Shown here: positions 48,110-62,276 of the stretch, piece by piece
Numbering within the stretch: the first letter of the stretch is position 1
How the letters are laid out: each line of letters starts with the position of its first letter
IMG/VR virus record: IMGVR_UViG_3300028592_000009
Origin: an uncultured virus (IMG/VR IMGVR_UViG_3300028592_000009)
Lineage: Duplodnaviria > Heunggongvirae > Uroviricota > Caudoviricetes
DNA length: 64,000 bases
Strand: one strand, 5' to 3'
Notes under the pieces: model-generated
Seen by the model: the letters and a program-made list of their open reading frames with translations, nothing else
Told to the model about the DNA's origin: nothing
Database searches by the model: none
Program-made: the position numbers and the translations under genes

Positions 48110-48772
48110 CTACGACCCGCCGGTCAGCTTGTCGTAGCAGATGTCGCCGATGCCCCGTTCGCGAGTCCGCTCGTTGGTGAGCGGGCTGCTGCAGACTCCG
48201 CACTGTCCGACCTTCTGGCCGAAGAGGGCGAACGCCTCCGTGGGGTTCTCGTGGATGGCGCTGAGGATCTTGTACACCCGCAGCAAGCGGCGCCGACGGA
48301 AGTCGCCCGGAGCTCCGGTGAGCTCGCTGACGTCCATCCGTCGATTGCCTCGTCCGTCGTCCATGAGGCGGTGAACCTGGTAGAACCGGATCGTCTCGTC
48401 CTCGGACTGGAGCGCGTACTTGCCGGGCTTGATGGACAGGAACTTGTCGTCCCAGCCCGCGTACCCGGCCTGTGCGCCACGGACGTACGGCTGCTTGAGC
48501 ATCCTGGAGATGAAGGAGCTCGCGTCGGCGAACCCGAGCGAGTTGATCATCTCCTCGTACTCGGCCTTCTCCAGCTCCTTGTACTCAGCCAGCCGCTCCC
48601 GCTCCCGACCCAGCGCGTGCGCCAGGGACAGCTGCTTGTGAGTGGACTTGGCCTGGAGACCGTGGCTGTGACGGAGGACACGGTCGTGGGCGGTCTCCCG
48701 GGGCCGAAGCCCCGAGCAGGTCCTTACATCGTCGACCGTGTCGTGCTCGCCCTTGCAGTTACCGCACCTCAT
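48110..48772 (-). CDS. DUF6011-like zinc-finger protein
   Basis: N-terminal CGNC..H..C; C-terminal 'CGVCSSPLTNERTRERGIGDIC'. Confidence 0.7.
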   Translation of the reverse strand: MRCGNCKGEHDTVDDVRTCSGLRPRETAHDRVLRHSHGLQAKSTHKQLSLAHALGRERERLAEYKELEKAEYEEMINSLGFADASSFISRMLKQPYVRGAQAGYAGWDDKFLSIKPGKYALQSEDETIRFYQVHRLMDDGRGNRRMDVSELTGAPGDFRRRRLLRVYKILSAIHENPTEAFALFGQKVGQCGVCSSPLTNERTRERGIGDICYDKLTGGS

Positions 48773-49734
48773 CGGATCTCCTTCCGCGTGTCGCCGACAC
48801 GGGTCTGGCCGAGGTCGGCGTTCCGGCCGTCGTTGCGACCCCGGGAGTAGGACTCGCCGATGATCCGCTGCTGGTAGCTGCGACCCTCCTTGATGTTGTT
48901 GTCCTCCTTGTACTTGTCGTACGCGTCCTGGACGAGCGCCCCCTTGTCGCGGAGGGCGAGCTCGGCGCCGGTCGTCGCCTTGACCTGAGCGTCGCGGTGC
49001 TCCTGGAGCTTGTACAGACGGATCGAGACTTCGGTGCGGAAGCCCTCGGCGTAGGACCGCTGGAAGGTGACCGGCGTCTGGACCGCGCGGTACTCCAGAC
49101 CCATGAGCTTGCACCAGCGCTTGCAGGCGCGGATGAGGCGGCCGCCGTCCTTCTTCTTCTCGTGCCACTCGACCCACGGCCACGGCTCACCGATGGAGTC
49201 CTTGGGGTCGAGGTTGTGCTCCTCCATCCAGTGCATCCGGGCGATGTTCATCTGCGAGCAGGTCCGCTCCCAGTTGATCCCCGCCTCGTGCAGGATGTAG
49301 ACGTTCTCGTCGTACGAGCGCTGCATGTCGACCTTCGGGTCGATCTTGCGCAGCAGCTGGAGACGGAGGCTCGTGTAGACCATCTCGGCGAACTTGATGT
49401 CCGAGGGCAGACCGATGAAGTCGCCGAAGCCGTTGCTGTACCCGTGGAAGGCGCAGTCGTAGTGCTGCGCGACGCGGATGCAGAGGTTGTACAGGCTCGT
49501 CGCGATCGGGCTGTCCATACCGGCGAACTGGAAGCGAACGCGCTCCGGCATCTCGACCGGCTTGGCCTTGTCCTTGTTCGCGGCGGCGAGGATGGCCGCG
49601 TCGATCTGGTACTTGGCCATCAGCTCGTCGGCCTTGGCCATGAAGTTGTTGGCGGCCTCCTCCTGCCCGCTCTCGCGGTGGGACTCGGCGGAGTTGAGCA
49701 GCGCCTGGATCTTGTTGATCATGGCGTCAGACAT
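48769..49734 (-). CDS. DUF2786-domain protein
   Basis: 'KIQALL..AES...EAANNFMAKADELMAKYQID'. Confidence 0.75.
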   Translation of the reverse strand: MSDAMINKIQALLNSAESHRESGQEEAANNFMAKADELMAKYQIDAAILAAANKDKAKPVEMPERVRFQFAGMDSPIATSLYNLCIRVAQHYDCAFHGYSNGFGDFIGLPSDIKFAEMVYTSLRLQLLRKIDPKVDMQRSYDENVYILHEAGINWERTCSQMNIARMHWMEEHNLDPKDSIGEPWPWVEWHEKKKDGGRLIRACKRWCKLMGLEYRAVQTPVTFQRSYAEGFRTEVSIRLYKLQEHRDAQVKATTGAELALRDKGALVQDAYDKYKEDNNIKEGRSYQQRIIGESYSRGRNDGRNADLGQTRVGDTRKEIR

Positions 49735-49746
49735 GGGGTGCTCCCT

Positions 49747-49803
49747 GGTCTCCTCAGCATGGGTACCTTACCCATGGACGTGACTGGCTGTCACGTTTCG
49801 ACC
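49747..49803 (-). ncRNA. type II hammerhead ribozyme HH10
   Basis: GGUC-GAAAC-GUGAC AGCCA GUCAC-GUC^CAUGGG UAAGGUA CCCAUG-CUGAGGA-GACC; predicted cut 49777/49776. Confidence 0.93.
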
Positions 49804-49812
49804 TGGACGGGA

Positions 49813-50037
49813 TCAGTCGGTGCCGAGCACGATGTGCTCGTTGTTCGGGACGTCGCGGAGGGCGGCCTCGCGGATCGCCTCGTCCGACTTGTGCTTGTGC
49901 AGCATGTGCGCCAGCTTCTCGAGCTGCTCGGCGGAGATGTTGATCGCGTCCTGTCCGTCGTCGAGGAGGACGCCCTCCCATCCCTCGGACACGGTCGCCC
50001 AGAGGTAGTCGTCGAGCTGGACTCGTTCGTTCGCCAT
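49813..50037 (-). CDS. hypothetical protein
   Basis: AGGAG RBS, MANERVQL... Confidence 0.6.
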   Translation of the reverse strand: MANERVQLDDYLWATVSEGWEGVLLDDGQDAINISAEQLEKLAHMLHKHKSDEAIREAALRDVPNNEHIVLGTD

Positions 50038-50045
50038 GGTCGCTC

Positions 50046-50174
50046 CTAGCAGCCCTGGTTGAGGATGAAGATGATGCCGAGCAGGACGATGATCAGGAGC
50101 ACGATGCATCCGAACATCAGCTCGATGGCCATCTTGAGCATGTCGCCGTAGGACATGTTGGTGAAGCGCTTCAC
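50046..50174 (-). CDS. small single-TM protein
   Basis: GTGA overlap; hydrophobic C-terminus. Confidence 0.5.
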   Translation of the reverse strand: MKRFTNMSYGDMLKMAIELMFGCIVLLIIVLLGIIFILNQGC

Positions 50175-50461
50175 GAGATCGCCTCCCACAGCGGACGGGG
50201 CGCGTAGGGGCTGATCCTGCCATAGCCGTTCACCTGGTCCGTGGCCAGCCACACGGCCTTGCGCGCCTCGTCGGCGAGCTCTCCGTCGATGTAGTCGGCG
50301 AGCTCCTCACCCGAGATGACGCCGAGCACGACCCCGGTGAGCGGGTAGGTCGGCTGCATCCCGACGAGCACCTCGACCTCGGAGACGTCGACACCGGCGT
50401 CCTCCAGGTCCAGCCGGATCTCTCCGAGCTTCTCGATGAGCTCCGTGAGCTTCAGCTTCAT
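50171..50461 (-). CDS. hypothetical protein
   Basis: GGAGG RBS directly after a hammerhead. Confidence 0.7.
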   Translation of the reverse strand: MKLKLTELIEKLGEIRLDLEDAGVDVSEVEVLVGMQPTYPLTGVVLGVISGEELADYIDGELADEARKAVWLATDQVNGYGRISPYAPRPLWEAIS

Positions 50462-50472
50462 GTTCCCTCCAC

Positions 50473-50535
50473 GATCTCGTCAGCACCCGTGCCATACGGG
50501 CGGACGCCACGGCTGGATGTCGCAGCGTTTCGATC
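50473..50535 (-). ncRNA. type II hammerhead ribozyme HH9
   Basis: GAUC-GAAAC-GCUGCG..CGUGGC-GUC^CGCCCG UAUGGCA CGGGUG-CUGACGA-GAUC; cut 50503/50502. Confidence 0.92.
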
Positions 50536-50547
50536 TGGCTGTGGTGG

Positions 50548-50673
50548 TTACCAGTGGAGCCCGAAGGCTCGCAGGACCAGCCCGATGCCGACCCCGAGCA
50601 GGACCCCGAGGATGGCGCAGGTGGCGATGTTCCACGGCGTGTCCGTGAAGAACGAGTTGAGCTTGCGAAGCAT
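50548..50673 (-). CDS. small single-TM protein
   Basis: GGAGG RBS, hydrophobic segment. Confidence 0.55.
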   Translation of the reverse strand: MLRKLNSFFTDTPWNIATCAILGVLLGVGIGLVLRAFGLHW

Positions 50674-50770
50674 GAGCCCTCCCGAGGCCCTAGGCGGCCG
50701 TCTACGGGCCGCGCGTTGCCGGGTGAGCCCCTTCGCCCACCCGGCTTGCGTTCGGCGCTTACGTTGGCGC

Positions 50771-51313
50771 CTACGGCGTCTCGATGAACCCGGCCTCGTC
50801 GGCGTCACCATTCTCGACCGCCGCGAGCTGCGCCTCGGAGACGGCCGGATAGAGGCCAGCCGGGTGCTCGGTGAAGTTGCTGGCGCTGGAGCAGCCGATG
50901 TACTGGAGCTCGCACTCGATCACGCGGAGCTCGCGGTTGCGGATCTCCGTGAGGACGTTGTACCGAGCCTTGAGCTGCGCCTGGAGCCAGCTCGGGTCGA
51001 TCCAGGCCGAGGCCCGCATCTTCTCGTTCGCCTTGAGCTCCAGGTACGCGAGCCGAACGAACTCGTCGACGTTGCCGAACTGCTCCAGGGTCGGCTCCAG
51101 ACCGATCTCCATGTCGGTCCGGTTGCCGAAGGACTCCTTGAGGAGGTACTCGACCTCGTCGTTCTGCTCCTGCGCCCGGAGGCGGTCGATGACCTCGTTG
51201 GCCCGCTTCTCAGCGTTGAAGCCGAGGATGTCGACGAAGACCTCGATCGTCTCCGCCGTGTCGAACTCCAGGTTGGTCTTCTCGATGAGAAGGATCCGGA
51301 TACCCATAACCAC
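50771..51313 (-). CDS. hypothetical protein
   Basis: AAGGAG RBS after a hammerhead; GTG 51313 or ATG 51307. Confidence 0.7.
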   Translation of the reverse strand: MVMGIRILLIEKTNLEFDTAETIEVFVDILGFNAEKRANEVIDRLRAQEQNDEVEYLLKESFGNRTDMEIGLEPTLEQFGNVDEFVRLAYLELKANEKMRASAWIDPSWLQAQLKARYNVLTEIRNRELRVIECELQYIGCSSASNFTEHPAGLYPAVSEAQLAAVENGDADEAGFIETP

Positions 51314-51325
51314 GCTCACTCCTTG

Positions 51326-51378
51326 AGAGCTCCTCAGCACCGGCTCTTACCGGCGGACGCCCGAAGGCGTTTCGCTCT
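51326..51378 (-). ncRNA. type II hammerhead ribozyme HH8
   Basis: AGAGC-GAAAC-GCC UUCG GGC-GUC^CGCCGG UAAGAG CCGGUG-CUGAGGA-GCUCU; cut 51356/51355. Confidence 0.95.
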
Positions 51379-51441
51379 TGCCTGGCGCCCGGTGCAGGGG
51401 TTTGGGTGGTCGCCACCCTGCACCGGGGCCGTCATGGGGTG

Positions 51442-51927
51442 TTACTCAGCGGCCTTGGCGGCCGTGCGGCGGGTGCGCCGGACTCGCGGCTTGGCCACGG
51501 GCGCCTCCTCCTTGGCCTCCTCGACCGGAGCGGTCTCGGCCACGGCCTCCTCGACCTTCTCCGCGTCGTCCGACAGCGCCTGGTCGGCCTCGCTGTCGTA
51601 CTCCTCGGGCTTGGTCTCCTCGGCGACCGGCGCGGCCTCCTCGCCCTTGAGCTTGGCGAGCTCGGCCTCCAGCTTGGCGAGCTTGCGGGCCTTGGCCTCC
51701 TCGGCCTTCTTGGCCGCCGCGACCTTGCGGTCGGCGAGGTTCGCCTGGTTCTCCGGGCTGGCCTGGAAGTCCAGGCGGAAGGACACCGCGAGCTGGACGG
51801 TCTTGAGGTCGGGCTTGACCCCCGTCTTCTCCTCGATCCAGGCGGCGAACGCCTTGTGGAGGTCGGTGGGCTCGGCCTTGGCGCGCTCGGCGAAGGTCTT
51901 CTTCTTGGAGGCGGTGTTCTCGGTCAT
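51442..51927 (-). CDS. PTDLH-family protein paralog 2
   Basis: FAERA..PTDLHKAFAAWI.EKTGV..DLKTVQL; RBS after a hammerhead. Confidence 0.8.
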   Translation of the reverse strand: MTENTASKKKTFAERAKAEPTDLHKAFAAWIEEKTGVKPDLKTVQLAVSFRLDFQASPENQANLADRKVAAAKKAEEAKARKLAKLEAELAKLKGEEAAPVAEETKPEEYDSEADQALSDDAEKVEEAVAETAPVEEAKEEAPVAKPRVRRTRRTAAKAAE

Positions 51928-51939
51928 GGTAACTCCTAG

Positions 51940-52010
51940 GGACTCCTCAGCACCGGCACTCTACCGGCGGACCATCGGGGCGGCCTCTCGACCGCCCCTA
52001 GGTTTCGTCC
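51940..52010 (-). ncRNA. type II hammerhead ribozyme HH7
   Basis: GGAC-GAAAC-long stem III-GUC^CGCCGG UAGAGUG CCGGUG-CUGAGGA-GUCC; cut 51970/51969. Confidence 0.92.
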
Positions 52011-52258
52011 TGTGTACTGCTTCTCTCGCACCCGCCGGGACCTACCGGCTGCTTGTGCGAGGCGCGTCGACCAGTCGATTAGCCGAGCTACGGGTTTTGT
52101 GGAGGTCCCGTTCCTGTCAGAAGTCAGCGGCCCTTGCGGGGCGCGATCTCAGCCGTCTTCCTGGGCTGTCCTACTCGGGCTCGCGGTCTTCGGGCTGCGT
52201 CTCGACCGTCGGCTGGATGCGCCGTCCCGGGAGTTCCTCGCTTGCCCTGCTCGCTTAC
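52011..52258 (-). ncRNA. structured non-coding leader RNA A (unknown family)
   Basis: No credible CDS between promoter and HH7; shares covarying motifs with 55735-56148. Confidence 0.6.
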
Positions 52259-52265
52259 GAGTAGA

Positions 52266-52294
52266 ACTATGCGCCATTCCTCCGGGGAAGGCAA
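52266..52294 (-). promoter_or_regulatory. promoter driving ribozyme operon A
   Basis: TTGCCT-17bp-CATAGT, same hexamers as 56156-56184. Confidence 0.75.
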
Positions 52295-52451
52295 ACACCC
52301 ATCTACCTGCGCATTCATCGCGTTTGCCCTGGTAGGGGGCTTGCGAAGATTCTATAATTTCTTTCAAGAAATTACATATGCGCAGGTAGACATGAGTGTC
52401 GACCATCTACGGCGATTCACCGCGCCTCAGCGCGAATCGGGCGAAACCGCC

Positions 52452-52880
52452 CTACAGCGCCGTGAGCTTCCACAGCGAGCTGTCCTCCAGGCGCACAATC
52501 TGGGAGCCGTCCGAGGCCTTGCCGACGGGCTCGTACAGCTCCCAGGTGCCCGGCTTCTCCCAGGGGGCGCGCGGCTTGGCACGGGGCGGCACGGAGGCCG
52601 GGGTGCCGTCGCTGTGCGTGATGGGCTCATTCAGGTCCGCCAGGGGCACACCGGCCACGGCGGGCTGAGCCTTGGGCGCCGCACTGTTGACGCGCCAGAC
52701 GTGTCCCTTGGAGATCACGTCGATGTCCATCTTGTTCTGAGCGATGATGCGGCGCATGACAGCGCGGACCTGCTCGTCGCGGAGGCCGGTCTCCTTGCAG
52801 GCCTCGTTGATGATGATGGTCTGGCCGATGCGCGCGACCAGGTACTTGGTCATGGTCGACTGCACGTTCATGTTACCCAT
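52452..52880 (-). CDS. hypothetical protein (possible winged helix)
   Basis: AGGAGG after a hammerhead; 'NEACKETGLRDEQVRAVM...GHVWR'. Confidence 0.65.
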   Translation of the reverse strand: MGNMNVQSTMTKYLVARIGQTIIINEACKETGLRDEQVRAVMRRIIAQNKMDIDVISKGHVWRVNSAAPKAQPAVAGVPLADLNEPITHSDGTPASVPPRAKPRAPWEKPGTWELYEPVGKASDGSQIVRLEDSSLWKLTAL

Positions 52881-52896
52881 GTTGCAGAGCCCTCCT

Positions 52897-52958
52897 AGAC
52901 TCGTCAGCGGCCGTCTACGGCCGGACCGCACCCCGGTGACCCGGGGCCGGTTTCGTCC
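52897..52958 (-). ncRNA. type II hammerhead ribozyme HH6
   Basis: GGAC-GAAAC-stem III-GUC^CGGCCG UAGA CGGCCG-CUGACGA-GUCU; cut 52924/52923. Confidence 0.92.
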
Positions 52959-52967
52959 TGTGGAGGA

Positions 52968-53600
52968 TCAGACGTAGGACCAGGAGCGCACGACCGACAT
53001 GGTGCCATGGCTGGCGACCCGCTGCCTGGCCGCCTTGAGCAGCTCGTCCTGGTCGGGCTCTCCGAGCACCTTGACGCGCTGCTGGCTGATCTTGGCCGGA
53101 TACTTGAGCCCGTGCTGCTTGTCCATCTGCACGACGGCGAGCCTGTCGTAGCGGTTGAACTCGCTGTCCTCGAACCGGAGAATCACGCCCTCCATGCCCA
53201 CGTACCGGCCACGGGTGGTGAGCGACTTCACGCGCTTGCCGATGCCGGGGGTGGACCAGTTGTCCGTGGCCGACTTCACGAGCATGCGGATCGTCCACTC
53301 GTCGGCCGCCCTGAGCACGTCGATCGTGGCGTCGGCGGAGGCGTTGTGGTGGTACGTCCAGCCACGGGTCGTCGCGTACTGGATCGTCTTGACGCGCTCC
53401 TCCTCGGCGTCCCACACGACCGCGTAGAAGTCGCTGTCGTCGTGCATGTTGCGCTCGTAGATGCCGATCACGGCTCCGAGATAGGTCGTCTCGTGGGCCT
53501 CAAGGTGCAGTTTGTTGAGCGCCTCGTCGGAGCTGTACTGGTTGGGGTCGTACCCCTGCTCCTTGCCGTGCCAGGGGTTGGTGCAAGTGATGATGGGCAT
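52968..53600 (-). CDS. hypothetical protein
   Basis: GAGGAGG RBS after a hammerhead; 'HDDSDFYAVVWD...YATTR'. Confidence 0.75.
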   Translation of the reverse strand: MPIITCTNPWHGKEQGYDPNQYSSDEALNKLHLEAHETTYLGAVIGIYERNMHDDSDFYAVVWDAEEERVKTIQYATTRGWTYHHNASADATIDVLRAADEWTIRMLVKSATDNWSTPGIGKRVKSLTTRGRYVGMEGVILRFEDSEFNRYDRLAVVQMDKQHGLKYPAKISQQRVKVLGEPDQDELLKAARQRVASHGTMSVVRSWSYV

Positions 53601-53613
53601 GATTCCTCCTCGG

Positions 53614-53666
53614 GAGCTCTTCAGCAGGACCGTGCAGCCCTGGACGCTCACATGAGCGTTTCGCTC
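53614..53666 (-). ncRNA. type II hammerhead ribozyme HH5
   Basis: GAGC-GAAAC-GCUC AUGU GAGC-GUC^CAGGGC UGCACG GUCCUG-CUGAAGA-GCUC; cut 53643/53642. Confidence 0.93.
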
Positions 53667-53848
53667 TGGGTGGCGACCTCCGCACCCCTCCATATGAGTG
53701 CAGAGGCCGCCTGCGGGCCATTTCGAACAAGGCTCGTGCCCGGGCACAACCCGGTCGGACGATCGTGCTCCTAGGAGTGCACTAGCGAAAGCCGTGCTGC
53801 ACGAGCCAGGTCTTACGGATCCCCGCGTTCCGGCCGTCGCCGGAAGTC

Positions 53849-53998
53849 TTATGCCAGCTCCAGGCCTCTGTCGAAGCCGCACTGGGCATGGGCGACGATG
53901 CTGATGGCGCCCGAACGATCGGCCGTCCTGAACTCAGCCATCTCGTCGTCCGGCCCCTCGTCGCAGAGCTCGCAGTCGTCGTTGAACTCGGGCAGCAT
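53849..53998 (-). CDS. small Cys/His protein (49 aa)
   Basis: Read by hand: MLPEFNDDCELCDEG...HAQCG; TGATG coupling. Confidence 0.55.
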   Translation of the reverse strand: MLPEFNDDCELCDEGPDDEMAEFRTADRSGAISIVAHAQCGFDRGLELA

Positions 53999-54255
53999 CA
54001 GAGGGCCTTCCGAACGTTGATGGAGAGGACGACCGGGTTGGTCCAGATGTAGTTGCCGGAGCCGTCGGTGTTGCTCTGGTGGACGGTCGTCCTCCGGTCG
54101 ATGCGGTATGCCATCACGAACCGCGCGGCCATCGTTATGTCCGGGAGCTCGATGTCGAGCGTGCCGGTTCGATCCATGCCGTGGACCGTGGCCTTGAAGG
54201 CGGCCACGTTGCTCGTCAGCAGACCCTGCAGAACGGTGTCGATCTCGATGGTCAT
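53998..54255 (-). CDS. hypothetical protein
   Basis: GGAGG RBS after a hammerhead. Confidence 0.7.
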   Translation of the reverse strand: MTIEIDTVLQGLLTSNVAAFKATVHGMDRTGTLDIELPDITMAARFVMAYRIDRRTTVHQSNTDGSGNYIWTNPVVLSINVRKAL

Positions 54256-54264
54256 GATTCCTCC

Positions 54265-54321
54265 GGTCTCTTCAGCAGGCGCACCTTACGCCTGGACGTC
54301 GCTGGCTGCGACGTTTCGACC
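54265..54321 (-). ncRNA. type II hammerhead ribozyme HH4
   Basis: GGUC-GAAAC-GUCGC AGCCA GCGAC-GUC^CAGGCG UAAGGUG CGCCUG-CUGAAGA-GACC; cut 54295/54294. Confidence 0.94.
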
Positions 54322-54385
54322 TGGTTGGAGAAGTGGTCTTGCCGGCATGCCCATAAGCAGGCTAGCCAGACGGATAGGGCGGCCA

Positions 54386-54481
54386 TCAGGCCGCGCCCCA
54401 GAAGATCGCCAGGCTGACGGCGACAACGCCGATCACGAACAGGATGCACCCGAGGGCCATCTGGTCTCCGCTAACACCCAT
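54386..54481 (-). CDS. 31-aa single-TM peptide
   Basis: MGVSGDQMALGCILFVIGVVAVSLAIFWGAA; TGATG coupling. Confidence 0.5.
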   Translation of the reverse strand: MGVSGDQMALGCILFVIGVVAVSLAIFWGAA

Positions 54482-54600
54482 CAGAAGAACTCCACCTTCG
54501 AAACGATGAACATGAGCACGGACATGAGGACCATCCCGACCGCCATCAGCGCGAGCAGGAACAGGAAGCAGCCGCGCGCTTCCTCGTAGCCGTCGGCCAT
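54481..54600 (-). CDS. 39-aa single-TM peptide
   Basis: MADGYEEARGCFLFLLALMAVGMVLMSVLMFIVSKVEFF; TGATG coupling. Confidence 0.55.
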   Translation of the reverse strand: MADGYEEARGCFLFLLALMAVGMVLMSVLMFIVSKVEFF

Positions 54601-54719
54601 CAGAACACCAGCCCCATCAGGATGGTGAAGCCGACACCCAAGGCGAACCCCAGTCCGCCGAGACCGACAAGTATCTTGAACAGGTCGCTCCTGTCGCGAT
54701 CGCTGGAACCCATCAGCAT
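54600..54719 (-). CDS. 39-aa single-TM peptide
   Basis: MLMGSSDRDRSDLFKILVGLGGLGFALGVGFTILMGLVF; TGATG coupling. Confidence 0.55.
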   Translation of the reverse strand: MLMGSSDRDRSDLFKILVGLGGLGFALGVGFTILMGLVF

Positions 54720-54847
54720 CAGTGCTTCCTGCCCTTCTTGTCCTTGCCGGTGTTCTTGATGAGGACGTAGACGATCCAGCAGATCACGGCGATGAAGCCG
54801 AAGAACAGCAGGGTGTCCACGATGAGGATGAACAGTTCAGCGGGCAT
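54719..54847 (-). CDS. 42-aa single-TM peptide
   Basis: MPAELFILIVDTLLFFGFIAVICWIVYVLIKNTGKDKKGRKH; AAGGAG after a hammerhead. Confidence 0.65.
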   Translation of the reverse strand: MPAELFILIVDTLLFFGFIAVICWIVYVLIKNTGKDKKGRKH

Positions 54848-54858
54848 GCACTCTCCTT

Positions 54859-54941
54859 GAGCTCGTCAGCACGGCCACCTAGCCGTGGACGAGCCCCGGG
54901 CGAAGGGGTGTTGGGGAGTCCGCCCGGGGCTCGTTTCGCTC
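54859..54941 (-). ncRNA. type II hammerhead ribozyme HH3
   Basis: GAGC-GAAAC-long stem III-GUC^CACGGC UAGGUG GCCGUG-CUGACGA-GCUC; cut 54888/54887. Confidence 0.93.
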
Positions 54942-54945
54942 TGTC

Positions 54946-55254
54946 CTACTTGTCCGTCGGGACGTTGACGACCGCGTCGTCCGAGCCCCAGCCCGCGTTC
55001 GGGTCCGAGCCCTGGTCCTGCGGGATGTTGACGACCTCGCTGTCGTTGCCGAGGTACTGGTTCTCGTCGCCCATGTTGGCGATCTCCTTCTTGATCTGGT
55101 TCCAGATCGTCTCGTCGTCGAGGTGCGGGAACGTCTTCTTGGCGATGACGAAGACCGACTGAATCTCGATGTCTCCCTCAGCCCAGCAGGGCATGCTGCC
55201 CGGGCCCGGCACCTTCTGCTTGGTCAGCTCCTGGATGTCGAGCTCGACCTTCAT
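54946..55254 (-). CDS. hypothetical protein
   Basis: AGGAGG RBS after a hammerhead. Confidence 0.7.
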   Translation of the reverse strand: MKVELDIQELTKQKVPGPGSMPCWAEGDIEIQSVFVIAKKTFPHLDDETIWNQIKKEIANMGDENQYLGNDSEVVNIPQDQGSDPNAGWGSDDAVVNVPTDK

Positions 55255-55264
55255 GCTTCCTCCT

Positions 55265-55323
55265 AGGACTCATCAGCACGGCTTCCTTAGCCGTGGACCC
55301 GGCTGGCTACCGGGTTTCGTCCT
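55265..55323 (-). ncRNA. type II hammerhead ribozyme HH2
   Basis: AGGAC-GAAAC-CCGG UAGCCAG CCGG-GUC^CACGGC UAAGGAA GCCGUG-CUGAUGA-GUCCU; cut 55296/55295. Confidence 0.95.
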
Positions 55324-55649
55324 CAGTTGAACTGCGCCTCGACCAGCGTCCTGTGTCGGCGGATGGCCTGGCGTACCGCGTCGTACTTCGCCCCGTGCCG
55401 GAACGCCACGGCCTGCATGGCGCCTCTGACGCATCCGAGCTTGACCCAGTCCTCGTACAGCCTGGCGTCCGACACCCTGAGCGGAATGTACTCGCGCTGG
55501 ACGATGTCGTACCGAGCCTTGAGCCGCCTGCGGATGCAGGTTTCGGTCACTCCGTACTGGAGCGCCGTCTGCGAGACGTTCCGACCGAGCAGCTCCCACA
55601 TCGTGTGGATGCGCTCGTTGTCCTGGGGCAGCTGGCTGGTTGCCGGCAT
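55323..55649 (-). CDS. HTH-like DNA-binding protein
   Basis: 'GRNVSQTALQYGVTETCIRRRL'; GGAGG RBS after a hammerhead. Confidence 0.65.
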   Translation of the reverse strand: MPATSQLPQDNERIHTMWELLGRNVSQTALQYGVTETCIRRRLKARYDIVQREYIPLRVSDARLYEDWVKLGCVRGAMQAVAFRHGAKYDAVRQAIRRHRTLVEAQFN

Positions 55650-55660
55650 GCTCACCTCCG

Positions 55661-55734
55661 AGACTCTTCAGCAGCGCCGTTCAGCGCCGGACAGCCCGCC
55701 CCCGGGTCATGGCCAAGGGCGGACTGTTTCGTCT
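55661..55734 (-). ncRNA. type II hammerhead ribozyme HH1
   Basis: AGAC-GAAAC-long stem III-GUC^CGGCGC UGAACG GCGCUG-CUGAAGA-GUCU; cut 55690/55689. Confidence 0.92.
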
Positions 55735-56148
55735 TGTTGTGTTGCCTGCACCCCTGTGGGACCTACCACAGCGCTTGTGCAGTTCGCAGCTAGCTTTGCA
55801 CCTTGCCTACCAACCTGATGTGTCCACGTAGAAGCGGGTTCCGTGTCTCCCTCGCTTGTACGTGGCCGTCCCAGGCCAGTCGCGTGCTGTCAGCCTCTCG
55901 GCTGTCGCCTGCCACTACCGGTTGTGTGGGGGTCCGGTTCCCGTCTCGAGTCAGCCGCCTGCTGGACACCTTCTCCAGAGGGGGCGATTAAGGCCGTCTC
56001 CCTTGGCCCGCCCGGGTTGTCGTCACCGGGCTCCGAGTTCGACCGCGAGGGCCAGCTTGGGGGATGGGTTCCCGGTTCACCCGTAGGTCGCTTCCGGTCC
56101 GCTCTCCCCGCCTCAGAGGGGGTCGGACCCTCTGCGACTCGGTGTTAC
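55735..56148 (-). ncRNA. structured non-coding leader RNA B (unknown family)
   Basis: ~410 nt with no credible CDS between promoter and HH1; homologous to leader A. Confidence 0.6.
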
Positions 56149-56155
56149 GAGGAGA

Positions 56156-56184
56156 ACTATGCCCCAGTCGGGCTGAGAAGGCAA
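56156..56184 (-). promoter_or_regulatory. promoter driving ribozyme operon B
   Basis: TTGCCT-17bp-CATAGT. Confidence 0.75.
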
Positions 56185-56212
56185 ACAGCCTCCTACCTGG
56201 TCATTCATCGGA

Positions 56213-56288
56213 AAAGCCCTGGTAGGAGGCTTGCGAACAATCTTGAAGTTTTTTGAAGAAATCATGAAAGCCCTGGTAGGAGGCTTGC
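56213..56288. repeat. 22-bp direct repeat AAAGCCCTGGTAGGAGGCTTGC x2 (candidate operator)
   Basis: Exact copies at 56213-56234 and 56267-56288; related copy at ~52326-52344. Confidence 0.75.
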
Positions 56289-56457
56289 CGGCATGCCGAA
56301 GCCGTAGGCGCCCCGTAGGCGGCTCGCGAGCGCTCGCGAGGGCGCGGGTATCCGGGCGCGCCCGTTCGCCCCGTAGGCGGCCACGTAGCGGCTCTGCCGG
56401 GGCCGGAACGCAGAACAGCCCCGCTCCCTCTCGGGGCGGGGCTGCTGGGGCTGGATG

Positions 56458-56829
56458 CTAGTCGACGAACTCGCTCAGGATCGCGTAGACCTCGACCTTG
56501 GCCTTGCGGGTCGTGGCCGCCTCGGCGTTGACCCAGGGGCTCGTCGACTGGACGCCGTAGTCCTCGATCAGCTCGTCGCGCATCCGGCGGACCCGGTAGA
56601 CCAGCTGCTTGGACTGCTCGACCGCGTCGGCCTTGTACTTCTCGGCGACCAGGTACAGGCGGGTCCAGGCGTCCAGGACAGCCTCGGCCTTGGCCACGTC
56701 CTCCATCCGGCTGACCGGGACCCTGGTCGGCTCGGCGATCGCCTTGGTCAGCGCGTCGTACGCCTTGTTGAGGTTGGTGTTGGCCTTGGCGGCCTCAGCG
56801 ATCACGGCGGCGGCGAGGGACTGGTACAC
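56458..56829 (-). CDS. hypothetical protein (single-gene cassette)
   Basis: Own promoter (56872-56900), AACAAC leader, downstream hairpin. Confidence 0.75.
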   Translation of the reverse strand: MYQSLAAAVIAEAAKANTNLNKAYDALTKAIAEPTRVPVSRMEDVAKAEAVLDAWTRLYLVAEKYKADAVEQSKQLVYRVRRMRDELIEDYGVQSTSPWVNAEAATTRKAKVEVYAILSEFVD

Positions 56830-56924
56830 GGCGTTCTCCTTGTTGTTGTTCCGGTTGGCCTTACAGTAAGAACCATACCCCAGTCAGGGTGGAGGCGCTA
56901 CCCTCCACCCCGGGCTTTCCTGGA

Positions 56925-57485
56925 CTAGTTGTCGAGCTTGGGGCAGCAGGGCTTGGCGTCGTAGGCCATGTAGTTGTCCTCCAGGCTCGACTCACCCGAG
57001 TCGATCATGTCGGCGTAGATGATGTGGGTGACCTCGGTGTGGCTGCTGACCGTGACCGTCTCCTGGCTGTCGCCCTTGCGGCGGCTGCGCTTAATGTCGG
57101 CGCAACCCGCCTTGTGGACCTCCGGCTCGCCGTTGCCCTTGTACAGGATGGTGAGCTTGACCTTCTCGGCGGGCTCGACCGGGGCGGCCTCCTCGACCTT
57201 GGGCGACTCCTCCTTGCCGGCACGCAGCTTGGCCAGCTCGGCCTCCAGGCGCGCCTTCTTGCGCTCGGCCGCACCCTTGCGCTTCGCCTCGGCCTTGGCC
57301 TTGCGCTCGGCCAGGGAGGCCTGGTTCTCGGGGGAGGCCTGGAAGTCCATGCGGAGGGTGGTGACCAGCTGGACGGTCTTCAGGTCGACCTCGACCCCGG
57401 TCTTCTCGGTGATCCAGGCGGCGAACGCCTTGTGGAGGTCGGTGGGGGCGGCGGCGGCGCGCTCGGCGAAGGACTGCTTGGCCAT
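56925..57485 (-). CDS. PTDLH-family protein paralog 3
   Basis: N-terminal domain nearly identical to 51442-51927; different C-terminal Cys/His domain. Confidence 0.8.
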   Translation of the reverse strand: MAKQSFAERAAAAPTDLHKAFAAWITEKTGVEVDLKTVQLVTTLRMDFQASPENQASLAERKAKAEAKRKGAAERKKARLEAELAKLRAGKEESPKVEEAAPVEPAEKVKLTILYKGNGEPEVHKAGCADIKRSRRKGDSQETVTVSSHTEVTHIIYADMIDSGESSLEDNYMAYDAKPCCPKLDN

Positions 57486-57701
57486 TGTGGCTCCTCGTGT
57501 TAGGCTCGGGCTTCCTGCCCTCGCTCATGAGTAGAACTTTACCCCAGTGGACTGGAGGTGGCTACCTCCATTTGCAACTTTCTTGAAGATTCTTTCGGGA
57601 GGCCGTAGGCGGCTGTCTGCCGGCATGCCGGCATGAGCGGGGCGCCGGGCATGGGCGAGGCCCCCTCCTGGTGCGGAGGAGGCCTCTACGAGGCGGGGCG
57701 G

Positions 57702-57971
57702 TCAGAGCTTGGGGAAGTAGTGCGCCAGGTCGAGGTCCATCTGGTCGGGGTTGTCGCTGGGGTGCTCGACCACGTCGTACCCCTTGGCGCTGAGGTTGTT
57801 GTGTCGGACCCAGTAGACCCAGCAGTCCTCGTCGCCGGTCTCCATGATCTCCAGCCAGGGCCCCTTGTGGCGGTAGGTGGTGGAGACGTCGAATCCAGTC
57901 TCGGCCGACGCCTGAACCATCGCCACGAGCTCCTCGATGCGGATCATGCCGTCCTCCTCGTTGTTGTCCAT
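57702..57971 (-). CDS. hypothetical protein, possibly leaderless
   Basis: ATG 6 nt after -10 TAGACT; alternative ATG after GAGGAGG. Confidence 0.65.
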   Translation of the reverse strand: MDNNEEDGMIRIEELVAMVQASAETGFDVSTTYRHKGPWLEIMETGDEDCWVYWVRHNNLSAKGYDVVEHPSDNPDQMDLDLAHYFPKL

Positions 57972-58078
57972 GGGTAGAGTCTACGCCACTGCACATGTGC
58001 TGGCTACCTCCATGTGCGATTTGCTTTCGCAAACAGCAAAGCTCCGGCTGGCTGCCGGGGCTCGGGGTGTGGCTCGGT

Positions 58079-58426
58079 CTAGCTCTCAATCGCGGGCCGC
58101 GCCCGGAGGCGCTCCTGCGCCGCGATGATCATCGCCCGCAGCGCGGGGACATCGGGCTCGTCCGCGCTCGTTACGTCGTCGTACAGCTCACGCGCCGTCG
58201 CCTCCAGGTCCTCGACCAGCTCCATGTTCTCGGGCGTCATCTCGTCGTACATCGCGCAGTTGCAGTACGACCGGCTCCCGCACCCGCACCCCGTCGCCTT
58301 GAGCACGTACAGCTCGCTCGTGTCGTCCTTGACCGCCAGCATCGCCACGCCCGCCAGGTCGTACCGCTCCTGCGTGATGTCGACGTCGCCCAGGACCGCG
58401 TAGCCGGGGATCTTGTACTCGCTCAT
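58079..58426 (-). CDS. hypothetical protein with GCGC motif
   Basis: Own promoter, AACAACAACAAGGAG leader. Confidence 0.7.
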   Translation of the reverse strand: MSEYKIPGYAVLGDVDITQERYDLAGVAMLAVKDDTSELYVLKATGCGCGSRSYCNCAMYDEMTPENMELVEDLEATARELYDDVTSADEPDVPALRAMIIAAQERLRARPAIES

Positions 58427-58505
58427 CGTCTGCTCCTTGTTGTTGTTGATGGAACTATACTTCATGCCGGCTGGAGGCGCTACCCTCCAGCCGGAGAAGT
58501 TTCCG

Positions 58506-58751
58506 CTAGGACACCAGGGCCATGCGGACCGCCTGGATGATCTCCGAGGTGGTGAGGTCCGACTCCTCGGGCAGGGCGTCCATCAGGTCGAAGGACGCGG
58601 CCTTGAGGTGCAGCGGCATCGCCTTGCCCGCCGCGAAGTTCTCGGCGACAACGTCCAGCTCGCGGGCGGCGGTGAGGAGGCGCTGGGAGCGGAGGCGGTC
58701 GGCCTCGAAGAGGGCGGTGGCGATCACGGTGGTGAGGTTGATCATGTCCAT
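58506..58751 (-). CDS. hypothetical protein
   Basis: Own promoter and AACAAC leader. Confidence 0.7.
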   Translation of the reverse strand: MDMINLTTVIATALFEADRLRSQRLLTAARELDVVAENFAAGKAMPLHLKAASFDLMDALPEESDLTTSEIIQAVRMALVS

Positions 58752-58958
58752 GGGTCGGTCCTCCTGGTTGTTGTTCTCGCTTACAGTAAGAACTATACCC
58801 CAGCTGCAGTTGTGCGACTACCCCTTTGTGCAAACTTTCTTGAGATTCTTTTAGAGGCGCTACGTGGCCGTGTAAGGGCCTGCCGGCAAGCAAGGGTGCG
58901 CGGGTACGCAGAAGGCGCCCGCCTCCTGTGAGACGGGCGCCTACGGGCTCTTACGGGG

Positions 58959-59351
58959 TCAGAACGCCCGGCTGTGGACCAGTACCACCGAGAGCAGCTC
59001 GGCGGCCTCAACGTGCGCCCGGGTCCACTCCTGGATCACCCGGATCATCGCCTGGTGCTCGGTCTTGTCTGCCGGCATGGTCAGGCGGCGGGTGGGCTTG
59101 CGGGTCTTGCCCTGGTACGTGTACGTGAGCTCGAAGCTCCACTCAATCGTCTTCGGCTCGGGCAGCCACTCCGGGTTGGCGTTGGGGGCAACGGTCTCCA
59201 GCAGCGCCCGGCAGGTCGAGCACACGCGGCGCTGCCAGCTGGTCGCCATCCCGTGGTAGGTCTTGCCCTCGCGGATGACCGGCTCGGTGACGATCTCGGT
59301 GTCGGCCAGCGCCTTGGGCTGCTTGCAGTCGTAGCAGGTGGTCTCGGTCAT
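58959..59351 (-). CDS. hypothetical protein with two CxxC motifs
   Basis: Own promoter and AACAAC leader. Confidence 0.7.
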   Translation of the reverse strand: MTETTCYDCKQPKALADTEIVTEPVIREGKTYHGMATSWQRRVCSTCRALLETVAPNANPEWLPEPKTIEWSFELTYTYQGKTRKPTRRLTMPADKTEHQAMIRVIQEWTRAHVEAAELLSVVLVHSRAF

Positions 59352-59450
59352 GGCTGCTCCTCGTTGTTGTTCCTGAGAGAACTCTACCCCAGTGGACTGG
59401 AGTTGACTACCCCTTGCGGGGCCCGGTTCTGGACCGGGCCCCGGGGTCGG

Positions 59451-59576
59451 CTACTCGGACTCGGCCTCCGCCCGCATCGCCTCGGCGGCCTGCGCCTCGT
59501 GTCCGGCGTCGGTGCCGTCGCAGCCGGGGTGGCTGAAGCAGGCGGTCCGGCGGTCCTCGGTGGGCTGCTCGCTCAT
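59451..59576 (-). CDS. 41-aa hypothetical protein
   Basis: Read by hand: MSEQPTEDRRTACFSHPGC...; own promoter. Confidence 0.6.
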   Translation of the reverse strand: MSEQPTEDRRTACFSHPGCDGTDAGHEAQAAEAMRAEAESE

Positions 59577-59694
59577 GGTGTTCCCTCTCGTTGTTCTCTT
59601 GCTTACGAGTTCAGTATACTCCACTGCACATTGGTTGGCTACCCCTTTGTGCAGATTGATCGGGGCGGGTCCGCCGGGACCCGCCCCGGTTCTA

Positions 59695-59937
59695 CTAGTA
59701 GCTCAGGCCGACCCAGTAGGTCGCGGACACCGCGCCCCAACCGACACCCGGGGCGCCCATCTCCTTGGCCTTGGCGGTGACCTTGGTCAGGACGTCCTTG
59801 GAGCCACGGATCTTGTAGGTCTCGATGACCGGGGTGGTGGACTCGAAGCCCTCCTTGATGGTCACCGTGCACCAGCCGTTGCGGCCGATGCGGACCTCGA
59901 AGCGCGTGTCCTTCGGGAGGGTCTTGTTCTCGTCCAT
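59695..59937 (-). CDS. hypothetical protein
   Basis: Own promoter, AACAAC...AAGGAG. Confidence 0.7.
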   Translation of the reverse strand: MDENKTLPKDTRFEVRIGRNGWCTVTIKEGFESTTPVIETYKIRGSKDVLTKVTAKAKEMGAPGVGWGAVSATYWVGLSY

Positions 59938-60163
59938 GTCCTGCTCCTTCTTGTTGTTCGAGGCTCCTTGCCTCATGAGTAGAACTTTACTCCAGTCCAC
60001 TGCAGCTGGCTACCTGCAATCGCAACTTTCTTCAAGATTCTTTCAGACTCATGCCGGCTTGGATTCCAGGCATCAAACCAAGTCTACTCCATGCCGGCTT
60101 GTATGGCTACTCTCCAGGCGCAACAAAAAGCGGCCCACCCCGAAGGGCAGGCCGCCGGGCCGG

Positions 60164-60508
60164 TTAGGCGCGATAGCCACATCCGGCGCAGTTGAAGCCG
60201 AACCCGACAACCGGGGCGCAGTCGGCACCGCAGCCGACGCCCGGGGACCAGGGGGACACCGTAGAGGCCGCGACCGGACCGGTGCACACCAGGCGCCACG
60301 TAAGGTCGTACCAGGAGCAGCCGTAGGAGAGGACGCGACCGGAGCGCACATCGCGCTGGACCGAGGACACGATACCCACCAGGCCGCGCATACCAGACAG
60401 GGCCGTAACGGAGCGGCGCAGAGCCGGGTCGGAGGACGAGCCCGGGACGAAGACCAGCGAGCCGACGGGAAGGGCGGGGACGTAGGCGGGAAGGACGCGA
60501 CCGGACAT
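60164..60508 (-). CDS. hypothetical protein
   Basis: Own promoter and RBS; atypical codon usage. Confidence 0.5.
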   Translation of the reverse strand: MSGRVLPAYVPALPVGSLVFVPGSSSDPALRRSVTALSGMRGLVGIVSSVQRDVRSGRVLSYGCSWYDLTWRLVCTGPVAASTVSPWSPGVGCGADCAPVVGFGFNCAGCGYRA

Positions 60509-60626
60509 TTTTACTCCTCGTTGTTGTCGATAGTAGAACTCTACGCCAGTGCACTCCACCTGGCTACCCTCCAGTCCAAACAAAAGCGGCCCGCCCCGGG
60601 AAGGGACGGGCCGCGAGGGGCGCCGG

Positions 60627-60881
60627 TTAGAGGCCGAGCTCCGACCGGTCGGCGGCCAGGGCCGCGTCCAGGTAGGCCGCCGTCGGCTCCGACCCGTCCA
60701 TGGGCTCACAAGCGTCCAGGACGTCGTAGGAGTCGCCCTCGGGCTTGGCCCAGAAGGAGAAGCCGCACTCCGGGACGGAGGCGTCGAACTCGACCCAGTC
60801 CCCAGCGGTCCGGCCGGTGGCCGTAACGGGGAAGCGCGGGTCGGACTCGGACTCGGCGATGACGCGGGCGATGAAGTCCAT
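60627..60881 (-). CDS. hypothetical protein
   Basis: Own promoter and downstream terminator (60583-60615). Confidence 0.7.
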   Translation of the reverse strand: MDFIARVIAESESDPRFPVTATGRTAGDWVEFDASVPECGFSFWAKPEGDSYDVLDACEPMDGSEPTAAYLDAALAADRSELGL

Positions 60882-61039
60882 TGTGGTTCTCCCTCTTGTT
60901 GTTCGGGGCTCCTTGCCCCTTGTAGTTTAAGTATACTCCAGTTGGACACCTCTGATTACCTCCAACTGGGAATTTCACAAGATTGTTTTGGACATACCGG
61001 CAGGCCGCGCCCCGGAGAGAGGCGCGGCCCAACGGGCGA

Positions 61040-61231
61040 CTAGGCGCAACCGGCGCCGTGGGGGTGGGCCATACGACCGCAGTCCAGGCAGACGTGGGAC
61101 AAGCAGTAGCGGTCGAAGGGCAGCGCCGAGCAGTCGGAGCACGCGGCCACACGGGCGGCCACGGCGGCGAAGAGCCGGACGTAGAGGGCGGTAACGGGCA
61201 CGAGCACGAGGTGGTCCTTGTTGTTGTCCAT
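61040..61231 (-). CDS. small zinc-finger protein, possibly leaderless
   Basis: ATG 6 nt after TAGACT; CxxC...CxxH..CxxC. Confidence 0.6.
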   Translation of the reverse strand: MDNNKDHLVLVPVTALYVRLFAAVAARVAACSDCSALPFDRYCLSHVCLDCGRMAHPHGAGCA

Positions 61232-61322
61232 AGGTACAGTCTACCCCAACTCCAGCTGTTTGGCTACCTGCACATGCAGAGGCGCCCACCCCTGGTGCGG
61301 GGCAGGCGCCTCGTGTCCGGAC

Positions 61323-61553
61323 CTAGCTGTCGTACTTGTACACCAGCTGGTCCTGCGTCCGCTCGCCACGGACGTACTCGACCTGGGTCAGCAGCTCGTG
61401 CTTGGTCATGTGCTGGATGTACCAGCCGACCGACCAGTCACGCGACTCGCCAGACGGCGGCGTCCAGGCCGCGTCCGGGGCCAGCCACAGCGGACGGTGG
61501 TCCGCCAGCGCCTCGGCCAGCTGCTGCTTGGTCATCTCAGACGTCTTGGTCAT
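61323..61553 (-). CDS. hypothetical protein
   Basis: Own promoter, ACAACAAC leader. Confidence 0.65.
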   Translation of the reverse strand: MTKTSEMTKQQLAEALADHRPLWLAPDAAWTPPSGESRDWSVGWYIQHMTKHELLTQVEYVRGERTQDQLVYKYDS

Positions 61554-61704
61554 GAGGTACCCCTATGTTGTTGTGTCCGGCGGTCCCTTGACTGCCTGAC
61601 GACAGTCTACCCCATGTCCATGCCGGCGACAAGACCCTGGACAAATCTTTTTTAATCTGCTGGAGGGGGTAGTCGACACGTGTGCAGGAGGGTATAGTTC
61701 TCTT

Positions 61705-61857
61705 ATGGACAACAACGAGAACAACAACGAGCAGGCGATCGCCGACTACAAGGCGGCCGAGGAGATGCTGGCGGCGACCTACCGGCGCCAGGCCCAGCTG
61801 GACGAGCTGGAGATCCTCTCCCGCCACCTGGCCGATCCGGACAACAACCCCCTCTAA
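61705..61857 (+). CDS. 50-aa leaderless hypothetical protein
   Basis: Read by hand: MDNNENNNEQAIADYK...; ATG 6 nt after TATAGT. Confidence 0.65.
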   Translation: MDNNENNNEQAIADYKAAEEMLAATYRRQAQLDELEILSRHLADPDNNPL

Positions 61858-61993
61858 GGGGCGGCGCGGGGGCCCGCTGGCCGGGCCCCCGGACATGCCG
61901 GCAAGATTGGTCCTGGATAGGGGTAGCCAACCGACTCCAGTCCGCGTATACTGAACTCGTAAGCAAGGCCCGAACAACACCAAGGAGCATCTC

Positions 61994-62218: not shown

Positions 62219-62226
62219 GCGACACG

Positions 62227-62266
62227 AGAGAGGCCCCGGACCCGGGAAGGGTTCGGGGCCTCTCTG
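62227..62266. terminator. terminator between convergent genes
   Basis: AGAGAGGCCCCGGACC...GGTTCGGGGCCTCTCT hairpin. Confidence 0.7.
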
Positions 62267-62276
62267 CGTTGGCGGG

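Follow-up and report, generated by a model that had tools for sequence, protein, structure and literature searches.

What does a phage gain by placing a self-cleaving ribozyme in front of one small gene after another? The question is raised by a stretch of 64,000 nucleotides (nt) from an uncultured virus, IMG/VR record IMGVR_UViG_3300028592_000009, which is called the window below and which represents most of a Streptomyces phage genome. It contains ten hammerhead ribozymes of type II within 6 kilobases (kb), for which a sequence-only reading had proposed that each leaves a near-uniform leader of hairpin plus ribosome-binding site, and that the set acts as a natural RiboJ-like insulator, with further roles in switching translation and stabilising mRNA during host takeover. 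Judged from the comparison of the window with its relatives, the ten elements are real, conserved type II hammerheads. They probably cleave constitutively, which would give messages that are capped by a hairpin and led by a ribosome-binding site, and the array is likely a natural intercistronic insulator rather than a switch.

Ten hammerheads and their conservation

A structure-aware motif scan covering both strands of the window found nine complete type II hammerheads, all of them on the minus strand within 49747-55734, and no further hammerhead on the plus strand or in the rest of the window. The tenth copy (52010-51940), which has an internal loop in stem III, was found by eye and with a script. 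The elements are built in the order 4-nt stem II strand, GAAA, stem III hairpin, GUC cut site, stem I hairpin, CUGANGA and complementary 4-nt strand, and thus have the type II topology, with loops closing stems I and III and with stem II open. All ten possess the canonical core (C3 U4 G5 A6 N7 G8 A9 together with G12 A13 A14), the A15.1-U16.1 pair, the GUC triplet, an open stem II of 4 base pairs (bp) and a stem I hairpin of 16-19 nt. The calculated energy is uniform for stem I (-7.6 to -10.9 kcal/mol) and variable for stem III (-6.7 to -32.8 kcal/mol), the latter having 16 bp in hammerhead 3 and a UUCG cap in hammerhead 8. The coordinates are collected in Table 1.

Table 1. Hammerheads, the decayed copy and promoter-like motifs of the window, with the open reading frame (ORF) behind each ribozyme; proteins are given in amino acids (aa), scores are those of the covariance model
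Feature	Coordinates	Strand	3' product from	Leader (nt)	Start codon	ORF	Score (bits)	Remarks
Hammerhead 1	55661..55734	(-)	55689	40	ATG 55649	108 aa	57.7
Hammerhead 2	55266..55322	(-)	55295	41	ATG 55254	102 aa	70.7
Hammerhead 3	54859..54941	(-)	54887	40	ATG 54847	42 aa	64.5
Hammerhead 4	54265..54321	(-)	54294	39	ATG 54255	85 aa	72.6
Hammerhead 5	53614..53666	(-)	53642	42	ATG 53600	210 aa, phrog_30881	59.5
Hammerhead 6	52897..52958	(-)	52923	43	ATG 52880	142 aa, phrog_32114	43.0
Hammerhead 7	51940..52010	(-)	51969	42	ATG 51927	161 aa, phrog_20596	55.9
Hammerhead 8	51327..51377	(-)	51355	42 or 48	GTG 51313 or ATG 51307	180 or 178 aa, phrog_36293	62.5
Hammerhead 9	50473..50535	(-)	50502	41	ATG 50461	96 aa	61.5
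Hammerhead 10	49747..49803	(-)	49776	42	ATG 49734	321 aa, DUF2786/DUF7168, phrog_421	71.7
Decayed hammerhead-like copy	50674..50775	(-)			ATG 50673	41 aa	7.4	recognised by alignment to hammerhead 6
Promoter-like motif TGGGGCATAGT	56156..56166	(-)						ca 420 nt upstream of hammerhead 1; putative start of first unit
Promoter-like motif TGGCGCATAGT	52266..52276	(-)						ca 255 nt upstream of hammerhead 7; putative start of second unit

A covariance model built from the ten window copies scores them at 43.0-72.6 bits (E 3e-13 to 3e-24), and the next match in the window, with filters off, has 15.4 bits. The GenBank phages nearest to the window are Yara, Dryad, Rooney and Gibson, with ca 79-85% identity over parts of the region, and a protein search added PHTowN, Lizz, ShakeNBake, phiRKBJ001 and Wentworth. 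With the covariance model, 6-8 strong copies per genome were found in eight GenBank relatives, always on the gene strand, among them eight in PHTowN and in Yara (the latter with two additional weak matches of 20 and 17 bits), seven each in Dryad, Rooney and Gibson, and six each in phiRKBJ001 and Wentworth. The nearest IMG/VR record has ten strong copies, and the model found none in Arthrobacter phage Wollypog, which shares one protein with the group. A scan of viral contigs with one protein for extra relatives returned a near-identical record alone.

Covariation was evaluated for the 32 copies of the window, Yara, Dryad and Rooney. Standard pairs occupy 96.0% of the 506 pair cells, stems I and II being 100% paired, and both-sided changes occur at 12 of the 16 pairs. 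None of 500 shuffles matched the covariation score, and when the partners were slid by 1-3 columns the pairing was only 31-43%. It should be noted that the alignment was fitted to the model, which biases it toward the structure; the compensatory changes are still plain in the raw sequences. The core is canonical in 30 of the 32 copies, the other two having the change U4C, and the cut triplet is GUC in 30 and GUA in two, position 17 being a non-G in both forms. The sole invariant feature of the flanks, found by reading, is an A immediately 5' of stem II (32/32).

The loops show recurrent sequences as well. A stem III loop (C/U)AGCCAG is found in hammerheads 2, 4 and 10, in Rooney 3638 and in Dryad 11151, with CACCCAG in Rooney 4019, and the stems below these loops have diverged by compensatory changes. 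The stem I loops are of two classes, UA(A/C)GGU(A/G)-like and UG(G/A)A(U/C)G, and some loops of the first class resemble a Shine-Dalgarno (SD) sequence. A partner for the stem I loops or for the recurrent stem III loop was not found.

Fusion of the ribozymes to the ribosome-binding site

Counted from the first nucleotide after GUC to the start codon, and in the order of ascending coordinates, the leaders of the window are 42, 41, 42, 42, 43, 42, 39, 40, 41 and 40 nt long. This recomputed list is identical to the one in the sequence-only reading, and the near-uniform leader that was attributed there to every ribozyme is indeed present behind all ten. The proposed order of the 3' product, in which the hairpin is followed by CUGANGA, the stem II strand and a nearby SD, was likewise reproduced, an SD-like tetramer beginning 0-2 nt after stem II in each case. 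For the 32 copies of the four phages, the tetramer starts 0-4 nt past stem II, and the leaders span 39-46 nt (median 42, standard deviation 1.8).

Each leader consists of the stem I hairpin (18 nt in 20 copies, 19 nt in eleven and 16 nt in one), seven core nucleotides, four nucleotides of stem II and a tail. The uniformity thus follows from the geometry of the hammerhead and its direct fusion to the SD, and is not a separate feature. The non-trivial point is that the ribozyme is fused directly to the ribosome-binding site. The distance from the end of the ribozyme to the start codon, that is, the tail, is 9-17 nt in all 32 copies, whereas the preceding stop codon can lie anywhere from 0 to 756 nt ahead of the ribozyme, standing directly against stem II in the case of hammerhead 2. 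The ribozyme therefore belongs to the downstream gene.

The start codons on which these lengths rest are credible. By reading, those of the window lie 5-11 nt behind a strong SD, and the alternative in-frame GTGs either overlap the SD itself or open frames of four codons. Orthologues start at the same position, as for example before the N-terminus MPIITC, where the window has ATG and Yara GTG. The start behind hammerhead 8 is ambiguous between the two codons given in Table 1, the GTG being replaced by ATG at that position in Yara. The starts deposited in GenBank for the three annotated relatives give leaders of 41-46 nt in 20 of 22 copies. The exceptions are Yara gene 88 (3069-3320) and Dryad gene 81 (11212-11343), for which the annotated starts fall upstream of or inside the hammerhead. 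Both have an in-frame ATG behind an SD, 13 and 16 nt past the ribozyme, respectively, which would give leaders of 42 and 46 nt, and these ATGs appear to be the more likely starts.

The effect of cleavage on the SD was estimated by partition-function folding, comparing its unpaired probability in the precursor and in the 3' product for the 32 copies. With 40 nt of upstream context, the mean value is 0.51 for the precursor and 0.54 for the product (Wilcoxon p=0.26), and with 150 nt upstream and 60 nt downstream the values are 0.50 and 0.56 (p=0.028). In the longer context, four of the 32 copies rise by more than 0.2 and one falls, and the spread changes from 0.16 to 0.13. The clearest case of a masked SD is hammerhead 6, where an upstream CCUCC is involved and the unpaired probability goes from 0.14 to 0.54 upon cleavage. 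The other copies predicted to be masked, in the 40-nt context, are Yara 3797 and, more weakly, hammerhead 9 (50535-50473). Cleavage is thus not predicted to free the SD from any base pairing that is general among the copies. The folding numbers would allow for a small insulating effect, and a steric exclusion of the 30S subunit by stem II is plausible.

Predicted cleavage products and competing explanations

For the mechanism that we favour, the constitutive insulator, the key element would be the fusion of the last strand of each ribozyme (the stem II 5' strand) to the SD of the next gene. The cut after GUC would remove the long leader at the start of each of two putative transcription units, and the polycistronic RNA would then be cut ahead of ten genes or small translationally coupled groups. 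The 3' product is predicted to open with a fully paired hairpin, carrying a 5'-OH on the flush 6-bp stem I, past which there would be 11 nucleotides that are now unpaired (CUGANGA plus four), the SD and the start codon, making up the leader of 39-43 nt. At its 3' end, the 5' product would have the stem III hairpin and a 2',3'-cyclic phosphate. As a result, the ribosome-binding site would be detached from the upstream RNA, and the messages would obtain defined, hairpin-capped ends. The sequences themselves show the ribozyme structures, how these are conserved and covary, and their constant placement against the ribosome-binding site; that the RNAs are cut in the cell, that the two units exist and that stability or translation is affected is what we infer.

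As for stability, RNase E is stimulated by a 5'-monophosphate, and flush 5' hairpins stabilise bacterial mRNAs. The sequence-only reading had the 5'-OH end resisting RNase J as well. This is contradicted by published passages on the enzyme, according to which RNase J prefers its exo mode on 5'-monophosphate or 5'-hydroxyl ends, the Streptomyces coelicolor enzyme has 5'-end-dependent exo activity (PMC4652760), and RNase J1 degrades the 5'-OH product of glmS (PMC3328962). Since RNase J accepts a 5'-OH, only the flush terminal hairpin is left as a possible protector. What is retained of the proposed insulator leader is the anchoring of the ribozyme to the downstream ribosome-binding site, seen in 32 of 32 copies, and the hairpin-plus-SD leader that cleavage would leave; a general base-paired mask is not supported, and protection by the 5'-OH is contradicted.

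Several observations weigh against a constitutive insulator. In Rfam, the type II hammerhead is RF02276 (clan CL00010), and at its gathering threshold of 37 bits none of the ten window hammerheads is reported; at permissive E-values, five are found at 24.1-26.6 bits and the other five are unreported at E<=10. The gathering threshold is the cut-off of the curators, not a structural criterion. In most type II hammerheads, loop I forms a pseudoknot with the tail that follows stem II on its 3' side, as described in the relevant part of Perreault et al. (PMC3088659). Here, a pseudoknot of loop I with the 3' tail or the 5' flank has no consistent register in the copies; the longest helix between loop and tail averages 2.7 bp, the best pairing being a UGG:CCA of 3 bp, which is seen in some of the copies from Dryad and Rooney. 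Most type II hammerheads use this pseudoknot for fast cleavage, and without it cleavage at cellular Mg2+ need not be fast. Furthermore, the orthologue of hammerhead 7 has U4C (CCGANGA for CUGANGA) in Dryad (9748-9811), Rooney (6969-7032), Gibson, PHTowN, phiRKBJ001 and Wentworth, in each case ahead of the counterpart of the gene at 51927. This core change is strongly impairing, so at least that site may function without fast cleavage. The orthologues in question keep their helices, phiRKBJ001 having a compensatory change in stem III, and in the window and Yara the core of hammerhead 7 is canonical. Finally, the shift in SD accessibility is small, and so therefore is the predicted benefit of insulation, and the acceptance of 5'-OH ends by RNase J means that cleavage could reduce the lifetime of the mRNA.

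Some of these points would suit a translational switch, in which the folded, uncut ribozyme beside the SD blocks 30S loading and cleavage, possibly slow or regulated, turns translation on. With stem II ending 0-4 nt from the SD in all 32 copies, a bound 30S and stem II are probably mutually exclusive; the SD is predicted to open by more than 0.2 in four copies, most clearly at hammerhead 6, and the lack of a recognisable pseudoknot together with the natural U4C variant allows for slow cleavage. However, the mean accessibility given above changes too little, no conserved anti-SD element and no ligand- or protein-binding element was found in these leaders, and a canonical hammerhead would cut in seconds to minutes, which leaves little time for switching. 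A switch therefore appears unlikely to us. The same holds for a timer that exchanges the 5'-triphosphate for an RNase J-sensitive 5'-OH and makes early messages short-lived, as with glmS. The preference of RNase J for such ends, the presence of the enzyme in S. coelicolor (PMC4652760) and the degradation of the glmS product (PMC3328962), in the passages cited above, speak in its favour. So does the finding that the ribozymes are confined to one block of small genes without known function, which lies before the replication genes. In the predicted product, however, the 5' end is fully paired in a stable hairpin and offers no single-stranded entry. A fully paired 5' end hinders 5' exonucleases, and RiboJ-type leaders reportedly support expression in Streptomyces constructs.

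We have also considered that the ribozymes could be hitch-hiking elements, spread by duplication and without benefit to the phage. Paralogy is suggested for several copies, such as hammerheads 2, 4 and 10, which share length and loop sequences, and one copy has decayed, but compensatory changes preserve all three helices across nine phages and the placement against the ribosome-binding site is kept in all 32 copies, which makes this option very improbable. Another option is a ligation of the fragments, which, with their 5'-OH and 2',3'-cyclic phosphate ends, could be circularised or spliced by hybrid hammerheads or by a host ligase of the RtcB type. The two halves of a type II hammerhead are joined by stem II alone, and a GGAC/GUCC stem II is common to six of the seven Rooney copies, so that neighbouring halves could pair. 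By reading, however, six of the nine neighbour pairs of the window have incompatible stem II strands, no RtcB, kinase or ligase domain was found among 66 scanned window proteins at the thresholds used, and Perreault et al., in the passages on this point, report that their systems, when examined for such products, yielded none (PMC3088659), so that we consider ligation extremely improbable. One could, quite doubtfully, also imagine a kinetic gate, in which stem II and the SD-bound 30S would compete on each nascent message; the 5'-OH hairpin and the 2',3'-cyclic phosphate left by cleavage would mark phage messages, which could possibly escape a 5'-end-dependent decay directed at host transcripts during infection, and a promoter per gene and a ribozyme per gene would be interchangeable.

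The constitutive insulator can be compared with known systems. RiboJ is in use in Streptomyces constructs, and according to Lou et al. 2012 it is reportedly a type III hammerhead of a satellite virus with a hairpin added downstream. As in RiboJ, the hammerheads of the window stand between upstream RNA and a ribosome-binding site, where cleavage would strip the upstream context and leave a structured leader. In contrast to RiboJ, they are of type II, the stem I hairpin would be kept at the extreme 5' end with no extra hairpin behind, and eight of the ten copies lie between cistrons and not behind a promoter. Hammerheads 1 and 7 may resemble the RiboJ setting more closely, each having a long ORF-free stretch behind a promoter-like motif, at which the transcripts would start. 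In E. coli, RiboJ is described, in the part of the source concerned, to raise protein 2-10 fold and transcript about 2 fold (PMC6206723).

Among natural systems, the array adds a new member to a kind known since 2011, when Perreault et al. reported clustered hammerheads flanking genes in prophages and phages (PMC3088659). In their account of these clusters, several type II hammerheads of the same orientation lie, as here, between single genes or short gene blocks. Transcripts of ~2 kb from their clusters cleave in vitro, and gene-length mRNAs were proposed as the outcome. The present array differs in its density, with ten copies in 6 kb on the gene strand of a lytic-type Streptomyces phage group, in the SD that starts 0-4 nt after stem II, at the usual site of the loop I pseudoknot partner, and in that all copies are under the Rfam gathering threshold. 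The same paper describes the hammerhead 'HHphage' of haloviruses HF1/HF2, which lies 13 nt ahead of the start codon of the gene that opens an early polycistronic transcript, the mapped 5' end being <=3 nt from the cut site; it is a single variant hammerhead of an archaeal virus and no repeated module (PMC3088659). The glmS ribozyme also generates a 5'-OH mRNA by self-cleavage in the 5' leader, in a Gram-positive host with RNase J, but there, according to the pertinent passages, cleavage is metabolite-dependent and destabilises the message (PMC3328962), whereas the present leaders show no ligand site and, once cut, would start with a closed hairpin.

When IMG/VR was scanned with a generic pattern for type II hammerheads, at least 128 stretches were obtained, with at least 98 structurally valid copies at no fewer than 80 loci. 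Among the matches listed, an SD and ATG are found <=45 nt downstream in 68 of 98, compared to 6 copies with such a pair upstream and 4 with one on the reverse complement, and the leaders are 39-69 nt long; with a slightly wider SD pattern, the SD starts <=6 nt from the ribozyme in only 20 of 98. Compared with these matches, the leaders of the Streptomyces phage group have a standard deviation of 1.8 instead of 7.5 and a median of 42 instead of 52 nt, and the group thus represents a general arrangement in compact form.

The purpose of phage hammerheads was still to be defined according to the corresponding passage of a 2019 review (PMC6765202), and a search of the published literature, with the supplements of PMC3088659, which possibly hold actinophage entries, lying outside it, gave no link of hammerheads to Streptomyces phages or actinobacteriophages. 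The feature tables of four relatives contain coding sequences only and no hammerheads; together with the scores under the Rfam threshold, this means that routine annotation misses these ribozymes. The group offers a clean test bed, since its members are isolated Streptomyces phages that can be cultured and that have 6-10 copies each in a fixed geometry against the ribosome-binding site, in a host that has RNase E and RNase J and for which mutants exist. It also provides natural controls, namely the U4C variant at one orthologous site and the decayed copy at another.

The gene block and its surroundings

The ORF calls used here are our own, and they are tentative for ORFs of 31-49 aa. Between 55649 and 48769, ten of 17 ORFs are led by a ribozyme, such that what had been said of every ribozyme stands and its extension to every gene does not. 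Of the seven ORFs without a ribozyme, five overlap the preceding stop codon (ATGA/GTGA), one begins 8 nt after a stop and one lies behind the decayed copy. In this copy, 11 positions of the core and stem II are replaced and the catalytic core is lost; its stem I-like hairpin and SD are near-identical to those of hammerhead 6, and it could act as a natural 'dead ribozyme' control. The ORF behind hammerhead 3 is followed by three overlapping small ORFs and that behind hammerhead 9 by two close-packed small ones, and hammerhead 10 is the final ribozyme ahead of the replication genes.

None of the proteins behind the ribozymes has a known function, and five of the twelve match PHROGs of unknown function. 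Among the twelve block proteins, one has weak helix-turn-helix matches below the Pfam cut-off and one is the DUF2786/DUF7168 protein. A role in host takeover is therefore unsupported.

By third-position GC, the structural genes are on the plus strand up to ~23 kb, and a single long minus-strand arm extends from 64 kb down to 23 kb. A divergent promoter at ~55.8 kb was ruled out, since the genes at 56-64 kb are also on the minus strand by the same measure. In the leftward arm there are probably two transcription units, as suggested by two ORF-free stretches on the minus strand, one of 723 nt (55735-56457) before hammerhead 1 and one of 441 nt (52011-52451) before hammerhead 7, each of which would form a long leader behind a promoter-like motif. 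Accordingly placed, hammerheads 1 and 7 are not intercistronic and the other eight are. The two stretches have in common a related promoter-like motif, AT-rich boxes and a 3' element GCACAAGC...GGTAGGTCCC; this element recurs ahead of the orthologues in Yara and Rooney. The two stretches might be set free as leader RNAs of ~250-420 nt. A scan of 48500-56500 with the sigma-70 consensus gave no sites. The sequence GGTAGGTCCC was considered as a promoter and rejected, as it has two exact copies only, 22-27 nt upstream of hammerheads 1 and 7, with no -10 element behind; it is now read as part of the long leaders.

A different arrangement is found further upstream in the arm. A promoter-like motif with a fixed length of 31 nt, GGTA(G/A)NC, 13 nt and TGGNGTANANT, occurs in ten copies in 56872-61268 on the minus strand, where 0.09 would be expected, and each copy precedes a small gene without known function. 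Several of these genes are followed by hairpin-plus-T-run sequences, and the covariance model found no ribozyme in this block (56.8-61.3 kb). It seems thus that short messages are made in two ways, from one promoter for each gene in this block and by one ribozyme for each gene in the block that follows. The second half of the motif recurs in looser form at 61614, 60091 and 45057 on the minus strand and at 75 and 24282 on the plus strand.

Some further observations concern individual sites. A 65-codon ORF (54252-54449, minus strand), probably spurious, spans hammerhead 4 and terminates at the start codon of the gene behind it; if it is real, cleavage would cut its message short. Between the stop codon at 51442 and hammerhead 8 there is a long GC-rich hairpin without a U tract (51385-51435, minus strand), and a comparable gap of 61-65 nt is found ahead of the counterpart of hammerhead 8 in Yara, Dryad and Rooney. 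An Rfam scan by E-value of the gaps in 55700-64000 for other ribozyme classes gave four weak, unrelated matches only. The sole Rfam match of the window at gathering score is a tRNA gene at 41125-41203 on the minus strand, with 45.4 bits.

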